Of a DNA stretch of 64,000 bases, positions 54,793 through 55,124 are shown piece by piece. Origin of the DNA: Octopus vulgaris (taxonomy: Eukaryota); the NCBI GenBank assembly GCA_951406725.2, contig OX597840.1, positions 37,882,001 through 37,946,000 of the forward strand, read 5' to 3'. Made by a program: the position numbers and the translations under genes. The notes beneath the pieces were generated by a model, which saw nothing but the letters and a program-made list of their open reading frames with translations, searched no databases and had not been told where the DNA came from. Numbering within the stretch: the first letter of the stretch is position 1; every line of letters begins with the position of its first letter.

Positions 54793-54796
<4 letters not shown>

Positions 54797-55124
54797 CGCA
54801 TTTTTGCCATTTGAATATGGCTAACCCATAAGGGTGGATGCTACTGTAGTTTGTAGCCCCAGGAAGATATCTCCTCCAGCTGGCTATAGACACACTATCT
54901 GTGTCCTCTCAGTATTTGTGAAGGGAAGTCATCCTCCCCGTCTTCAACACATGATACACACGTACCCGAGTTTCAAGGTCTTTACCTTTCATCAGCGTGT
55001 GACAATCATGGTTGTCGACGAGAAGTCAGATCCCTTCACAAATACATATACTTTTTCCAGTGTCGATTGACACTGATATTGAAAAAGTGAAATCAAACAT
55101 ATTCAAATGGCAAAAATGCGTCAC
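54793..55124. mobile_element. TIR-bounded, rod-folding non-coding element containing a hammerhead ribozyme
   Basis: Perfect 27-bp TIRs (54793-54819 and 55098-55124), an inner perfect 15-bp inverted repeat (54912-54926 and 55031-55045), and an HHR at the apex. Confidence 0.85.
54957..55001 (-). ncRNA. Type I hammerhead ribozyme, intact
   Basis: Minus strand CACACG CUGAUGA AAGGU-AAAG-ACCUU GAAA CUCGG GUA|CGUGUG. Stem I extends through an internal loop into CAUGAU/AUCAUG. Predicted cut at 54963/54962. Confidence 0.88.

Follow-up and report, generated by a model that had tools for sequence, protein, structure and literature searches.

Introduction

Non-LTR retrozymes of metazoans, as defined by Cervera and de la Pena (2020; PMC7229834), are short non-coding repeats found in tandem, with one type I hammerhead ribozyme per unit. 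They are described with a 2-bp helix III capped by a tetraloop, a highly self-paired RNA and co-occurring Penelope-like elements (PLEs) (PMC7229834; 10.64898/2026.07.22.740005). In mussel, units of 350-390 bp form circles; the axolotl retrozymes, among them Rtz353 with its hammerhead HHR_Amex2, are reported to form dimeric hammerheads (PMC7229834). Li, Clavereau and Pollet (2026; 10.64898/2026.07.22.740005) argue that non-LTR retrozymes derive from PLEs, in a main text from which octopus is absent, and 235 hammerhead matches have been recorded in giant squid (PMC6962438). The octopus repeat described here resembles the metazoan non-LTR retrozymes in each of these structural features and in co-occurring with PLEs. 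In contrast to them, it occurs mostly as scattered fragments with one or two arms instead of long arrays, and its cleavage and circles are predictions from sequence.

The insertions themselves are closest to those of EN+ PLEs. The PLE protein tested in vitro acts on both strands of AT-rich DNA, cutting and extending each and starting at two internal sites that bound a tail, and insertion of PAc is described as showing no difference between strands in the start site and no need for hammerhead cleavage (PMC11167929). Genomic PLE copies are reported with an inverted truncated copy, a 30-40-bp tail at one end and a bias to (TA)n (PMC8557442), and with inverted pLTRs, 8-10-bp target-site duplications (TSDs) and mobilisation in trans (PMC3846280). 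Taken together, these accounts (PMC8557442, PMC3846280, PMC11167929) match the octopus insertions in the fixed 3' ends with an optional tail, the inverted 5'-truncated second copy, the (TA)n targets, TSDs of roughly 10 bp or more and the presence of a hammerhead. The octopus repeat differs in having no reverse transcriptase (RT) or GIY-YIG open reading frame, in a tail of 43-46 nt as against 30-40, and in a strict pairing of one long with one short end, as against the lack of strand difference in start site for PAc in vitro.

Miniature inverted-repeat elements (MITEs) of the Tc1/mariner or PIF type have fixed terminal inverted repeats (TIRs) at both termini, a uniform length and a short fixed TSD of 2-3 bp. 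The octopus repeat is likewise short, non-coding and present in many copies, and the copy considered here looks TIR-bounded beside TA; unlike a MITE, the repeat has no fixed TIR, uniform length or short fixed TSD, and its ends are made by retroposition. A search of the literature exclusive of supplements found no description of this family, of a cephalopod retrozyme or of a hammerhead MITE.

The copy lies in a window of 64,000 nucleotides from Octopus vulgaris (contig OX597840.1, positions 37,882,001 to 37,946,000). It is very probably a two-armed insertion of a 352-bp non-coding hammerhead repeat, a non-LTR retrozyme, likely written into a TA microsatellite by the RT/GIY-YIG enzyme of a PLE acting in trans. 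Sequence comparison establishes that the unit occurs in tandem with an intact hammerhead motif, that insertions have two fixed 3' ends and are truncated to varying extents on the 5' side, and that they lie in (TA)n, with target duplications of 12-16 bp outside pure TA. The repeat is a new family of a known kind, not a new class.

The element in the window

A first-pass annotation of this locus, made from its letters, described a 332-bp element closed by perfect 27-bp TIRs and ending at 55124. The 27-bp and inner 15-bp inverted repeats are indeed perfect, and further inverted pairs lie within them (Table 1). The right-hand limit has to be moved to 55170, since 55125-55170 also belongs to the element: its reverse complement sits between successive units in tandem loci such as L019. 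As the 46 nt past the right 'TIR' are inter-unit sequence in those loci, the window copy is a 307-bp minus-strand arm and a 72-bp plus-strand arm set head to head. The junction between the arms is read from the assembly alone, and the surroundings are non-coding and rich in microsatellites.

Table 1. Features of the two-armed insertion, in window coordinates
Feature	Position	Strand	Basis
(TA)n target tract, left side	54761..54792		sequence
(TA)n target tract, right side	55171..55216		sequence
Long arm, 307 bp: sense copy of the 352-bp unit that lacks its 5' part and runs to the tail-less 'short' fixed 3' end	54793..55099	-	unit positions 47-352, 97% match
Short inverted arm: final 72-73 nt of the unit, up to the 'long' fixed 3' end	55098..55170	+	unit comparison
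Arm-arm join: 2-nt CA common to both arms	55098-55099		read from sequence
46-nt 'tail' separating the two fixed ends; lies between successive units in tandem copies	55125..55170	+	tandem loci such as L019
Apparent 27-bp TIR, left half (arm overlap); partner 55098-55124	54793..54819		perfect inverted repeat
Inner 15-bp inverted repeat; partner 55031-55045	54912-54926		perfect inverted repeat
Inverted pair CATGAT; partner 55005-55010	54950-54955		inverted repeat
Inverted pair CACACG; partner 54996-55001	54957-54962		inverted repeat
Type I hammerhead motif, predicted cut 54963/54962	54957..55001	-	direct reading, descriptor; stems I and II covary in older subfamily
Long rod extending stem I: 15-bp helix, CUUCUCGUC/GACGGGGAG, CAAC/GUUG, CAUGAU/AUCAUG	54912..55045	-	folds, intrinsic to unit
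Conserved 3' module: hairpins and ACAGUAGC strand (54847-54840), around the two fixed ends	54793..54905	-	pair probability, compensatory changes
Predicted partner of ACAGUAGC: GCUACUGU, within the tail	55136-55143	other arm	pair probability 0.98 in a natural unit

The apparent TIR owes part of its perfection to a variant at unit position 56, which is present in both arms and absent from every other sampled locus; it appears in only 2 of 150 site calls, both from the two TIR halves of this insertion. Because the window copy has a single hammerhead, it is likely a dead end that would not release unit-length RNA by itself.

The repeat family

Of 2616 candidates obtained with the element in the 2.8-Gb host genome, 40 were scored; they contain 162 matches, many in tandem at a spacing of 352-353 bp. 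An exact 35-nt hammerhead pattern occurs at least 227 times (control 0), which is a lower bound for the young subfamily, and has no match in viral_contigs. The unit is 352 bp long with a GC content of 43% and a longest ATG-initiated frame of 56 aa in a natural dimer. It is therefore a short (150-450 bp), low-GC, non-coding unit, free of LTR/PBS/PPT organisation and with the type I hammerhead inside it, as in other retrozymes. Whole units stand head to tail with no intervening open reading frame at L014, L019 and L027, and the tandem multi-hammerhead arrangement of retrozymes is present, two intact cores on one strand being found in only 3 of the 76 insertions surveyed below, all for the young subfamily. 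Four sequencing runs, guessed to be RNA, yielded short contig pieces of the family and are silent on expression, strand and circles.

An older subfamily, 77% identical and with a 356-bp unit, accounts for 3444 first-look candidates. A long tandem array of its units, each of about 320 bp, accompanied by an inverted short arm, extends over L050-L060 (C11, about 18753500-18758000).

The window also holds an older insertion of a sister family on the minus strand at 18860-19340. It comprises a 277-bp palindrome (18900-19176) with arms 84% identical, ends in (TA)n and carries the same conserved 3' module as the 352-bp repeat; a separate hammerhead-like motif lies at about 19345-19300. This sister family has 2139 first-look candidates in the genome. 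A further relative, with a 360-bp unit and the variant core CCGACGA, forms a two-armed insertion (L114:10-760) inside (TA)n at the 3' end of a PLE with a 775-aa frame, and its 3' module is common with that of the 352-bp family.

Insertion architecture across copies

Ninety loci, merged for duplicates, gave 76 distinct insertions, 30 recovered with the full-length query and 46 with two 80-nt queries. The loci are the best-scoring matches and not a random sample, so the frequencies that follow are indicative only. Two arms are present in 45 of the 76 and one arm in 31. One end of every arm is fixed, at either of two unit positions that lie 43-46 nt from each other, and its other end is variable. 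Among the two-armed insertions, 38 combine a long with a short fixed end and seven have one end eroded; long+long and short+short pairs are both absent. The short-query set behaves in the same way, with long+short pairs in 22 of 27 and erosion in the other five. The arms are mostly joined through short overlaps or gaps of a few bases. (TA)3 lies within 12 nt of 95 of the 109 fixed ends, and direct repeats of 12-16 bp that are not TA flank seven insertions (L006, L023, L141, L157, L166, L177 and L185). The hallmarks of PLE-type insertion are thus found together: two fixed 3' ends with variable 5' truncation, an adjacent inverted 5'-truncated copy, an AT-rich or microsatellite target and a TSD longer than 4 bp.

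This survey bears directly on the possibility that the element is a ribozyme-carrying MITE, which moves as DNA and whose 27-bp TIRs are transposase-binding ends. A perfect 27-bp TIR beside TA and the lack of coding capacity would suit such an element. However, the inverted repeat is missing from the 31 one-armed insertions, and in the 38 long+short insertions the arm overlap that produces it ranges from none to 420 bp, the window copy having the third shortest. The element also runs 46 nt past its right 'TIR', each arm has one fixed and one variably truncated end, as in retroposition, and the TSDs are of 12-16 bp and not TA. The first-pass annotation, which proposed to test whether TIRs and hammerhead always occur together, had itself named copies without the TIR pair as the outcome that would count against its proposal, and such copies are what the one-armed insertions and the range of overlaps provide. 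Its undescribed non-autonomous ribozyme element survives as a non-autonomous, ribozyme-bearing mobile element, without the TIRs that were to define it as MITE-like. Short of a separate group of copies whose termini are exactly these TIRs, the copy survey refutes the MITE reading, and we regard it as having next to no chance of being right. The ends of a CACTA or other DNA transposon, considered for a TAGTG junction, were dismissed once the tandem unit had been seen.

The alternative that the same annotation had kept as conservative, a Penelope-type inversion, was essentially right. The inversion is no one-off event; the two-armed form is the family's usual mode of insertion.

The extent of the arms suggests the form of the template. 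With arms under 30-40 nt left out of the stop and variant counts, 65 of 110 arms cross the predicted cut site (29 of 66 in the less biased set) and 38 of 110 are longer than one unit (11 of 66), pointing to a circle or an uncut multimer as template. Arm stops show no significant excess at the predicted cut site, where 7 were counted and 3.5 expected (p=0.06; 4 and 2.0 in the less biased set), or at the unit boundary (p=0.11).

Variants shared between arms

Diagnostic sites agree between opposite arms in 510 of 543 comparisons and between tandem laps in 237 of 253, against 76% between loci. Thirteen rare variants, nine of them confined to a single locus, are common to all arms or laps that cover them, as against 139 singletons. 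An excess of A>G changes was not seen among the shared variants (2 of 13). On this agreement, both arms are taken to derive from one RNA lineage; a homogeneous tandem source or gene conversion could be another origin of the shared variants.

Hammerhead motif and RNA fold

Read directly on the minus strand, the hammerhead comprises stem I CACACG/CGUGUG, CUGAUGA (54995-54989), stem II AAGGU/ACCUU, GAAA, loop III ACUCGGGU and a GUA site. This agrees with the type I motif with a 6-bp stem I and a 5-bp stem II reported at first pass, and a strict type I descriptor likewise gave one match in the window and none in 200 block-shuffled windows. Loop III is self-complementary across its variants, with duplex energies of -10.9 to -16.3 kcal/mol, which fits dimeric hammerheads of the kind described for axolotl retrozymes (PMC7229834).

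Rfam, suggested earlier as a check, did not report the hammerhead at the gathering score over the whole window or at E<=10 over 54600-55300 and 54800-55100. Nor did it return any ribozyme family on either strand at the gathering score or E<=10, its matches being TA-repeat noise; this negative is weak because the real hammerhead is missed as well. Home-made descriptors, built on the general consensus motifs of hammerhead types I-III, HDV, twister and pistol ribozymes, were run on both strands of four natural stretches and gave hammerheads on the sense strand only, plus two loose HDV matches, both of them rejected.

Folding of the minus strand of 54793-55124 gives the nested rod recognised at first pass, with an energy of -157.9 kcal/mol and a z-score of -13.4, none of 100 shuffles being as stable; the plus strand reaches z -12.8. 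With the inverted arm removed, the minus-strand fold still has a z-score of -9.6. A natural monomer cut at its hammerheads is predicted to form a long rod that joins both ends, together with a branched head (z -7.4), and such a rod would keep the termini of a cut monomer in contact. Folded as a circle, the unit is 65% paired, and its two strands both fold well (z -7.4 and -6.4).

Conservation of this fold was assessed in 27 aligned copies from the two subfamilies, 77% identical to each other; 24 of 51 near-full-length copies, and others, were left out of the alignment. RNAalifold did not recover stem I from it, probably owing to gaps in decayed copies, so the structure obtained from single-copy folds was tested instead. 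In that structure 89.8% of cells are paired, against 37-48% in slid controls, and 16 of 96 pairs, including some in stems I and II and in the rod, show two-sided change; the outer rod helix pairs at 75% as aligned. The number of further pair types was not above that of shuffles (497 of 500 as high), and independent covariation events are few because most of the covariation is one split between the two subfamilies. G-U cells (238) outnumber A-C cells (74), which favours the hammerhead strand as the one that is folded. The substitution pattern as a whole indicates selection for this fold on the hammerhead strand.

The 3' module contains a stem of 8 bp, the 3' strand of which is part of the tail. 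In a comparison of ten rows, in which the alignment is imperfect for distant families, this stem is kept with compensatory changes in the 360-bp family (L114) and in the family at window 18855-19030/L079.

These results leave little room for an integrated circular RNA of the ambisense viroid-like or delta-like type, in which both strands have a ribozyme and replication proceeds from RNA to RNA. The first-pass annotation had drawn the viroid-like likeness from a second structured motif on the opposite strand, for which it gave no position. The degree of pairing of the circle and the good folding of both strands would be in keeping with such an agent, as would the one loose HDV-like descriptor match on the plus strand. 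That match, however, was rejected: it does not pass the strict core test, the old-subfamily copy tested lacks it, and the descriptor behind it also matches 3 of 150 shuffles. Within the reach of the home-made descriptors, which does not extend to other ribozyme classes, no credible second ribozyme was found on the plus strand; Rfam has none on either strand, although it misses the real hammerhead too. The G-U excess favours the hammerhead strand, and the circle is predicted to fold as a rod that branches at its head instead of an unbranched one. A viroid-like origin is accordingly very unlikely, and the resemblance was not borne out.

Candidate Penelope-like helpers

If the 352-bp repeat is a retrozyme mobilised in trans, the enzyme should be sought among the PLEs of the same genome. 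Scoring covered the best 150 of 6136 GIY-YIG candidates and gave at least 150 matches; 67 PLE loci were inspected. Two very young RT plus GIY-YIG families have open frames of 775 and 781 aa, with RVT_1, a C-terminal GIY-YIG domain and a CX4CxxC linker; by the linker criterion described in PMC8557442 both would be Neptune- or Nematis-like. At 30 loci of the 775-aa family the element ends in (TA)n, with the short end in 11 and the long end in 19, and the family's inverted pairs have one short and one long end in all four sampled. Coding PLEs of this genome thus show the same tail footprint as the retrozyme, with a tail of about 30-40 nt in the PLEs seen here against 43-46 nt in the retrozyme.

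Other features of these families are of separate interest. The 775-aa family has at least 150 copies 100% identical over 200 aa, from which it appears extremely young and probably active. Its 3' repeat holds a minimal hammerhead-like motif, in which the core is CCGAAGA and loop III is the palindrome AGUACU (L094:3790-3850, L105). The 781-aa family has a second long frame, of up to 479 aa between stops, which lies upstream of the RT frame and overlaps it (L086:406-1482, L088:81-1517), which is unusual for single-ORF PLEs.

Comparison of the unit with the 67 PLE loci by blastn and nhmmer detected only separate retrozyme insertions and no shared sequence, so no partner was found among them. L094 was rejected as a PLE ending in the unit, as about 600 bp of unrelated DNA lie between the two, and the nhmmer matches at L114 and L079 were set aside as separate retrozyme insertions. 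Longer copies joined to an RT plus GIY-YIG open reading frame, which had been proposed as worth looking for, number none among the 76 insertions.

The unit could alternatively be a solo pLTR, a terminal repeat that has come away from an autonomous PLE outside the sample and has been amplified as short truncated PLE insertions. Type I hammerheads do occur in PLE pLTRs, which are the reported source of retrozymes (10.64898/2026.07.22.740005); the sample of 67 loci, drawn from the best 150 of the candidates, is also limited in size. Against this, units stand head to tail with no open reading frame between them at the three tandem loci named above, none of the 76 insertions runs on into a common flanking sequence beyond the unit, and the lone copy near a PLE, that at L094, is separated from it by unrelated DNA. 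No match to a described Penelope pLTR emerged, the repeat being a free 352-bp unit with nothing in common with the PLE loci sampled. We consider a solo pLTR improbable, and prefer an independent retrozyme copied by a PLE enzyme.

A model for insertion and its significance

On the retrozyme reading, the cycle would begin with a tandem source copy transcribed on the hammerhead strand, whose multimers the hammerhead would cut into 352-nt monomers, possibly aided by dimers through the self-complementary loop III. The monomers would then be circularised in the way shown for mussel and axolotl retrozymes. A PLE protein would cut both strands of a (TA)n tract and prime cDNA from each 3' end, one cDNA starting at each of the two internal sites around the conserved RNA module. 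Both cDNAs would stop at variable points and be joined head to head by short microhomology. In the window copy, one cDNA would be 307 nt and the other 72 nt, and the copy looks TIR-bounded because the two have 27 nt in common.

A more specific scheme is put forward tentatively, as one a little more apt to fail than to hold. Each two-armed insertion may be a copy of one circular 352-nt RNA by a dimeric PLE enzyme, with both cut strands primed at once and one subunit per start site, the sites being set by a 3' module common to at least four retrozyme families of the genome. If so, the long/short pairing in 38 of 38 insertions, together with the variants private to both arms, would be the footprint of dimeric copying from a single circle, and the 3' module would be a portable loading signal for PLEs.

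The element itself is unremarkable, one more family of retrozymes, and its significance is modest. It shows that a PLE-type insertion takes on the exact appearance of a MITE when its second arm is short, a possible trap for repeat annotation. The family offers a compact, young test substrate for how retrozymes return to DNA, and could address whether or not the circle is the template and which RNA structure recruits the Penelope enzyme.
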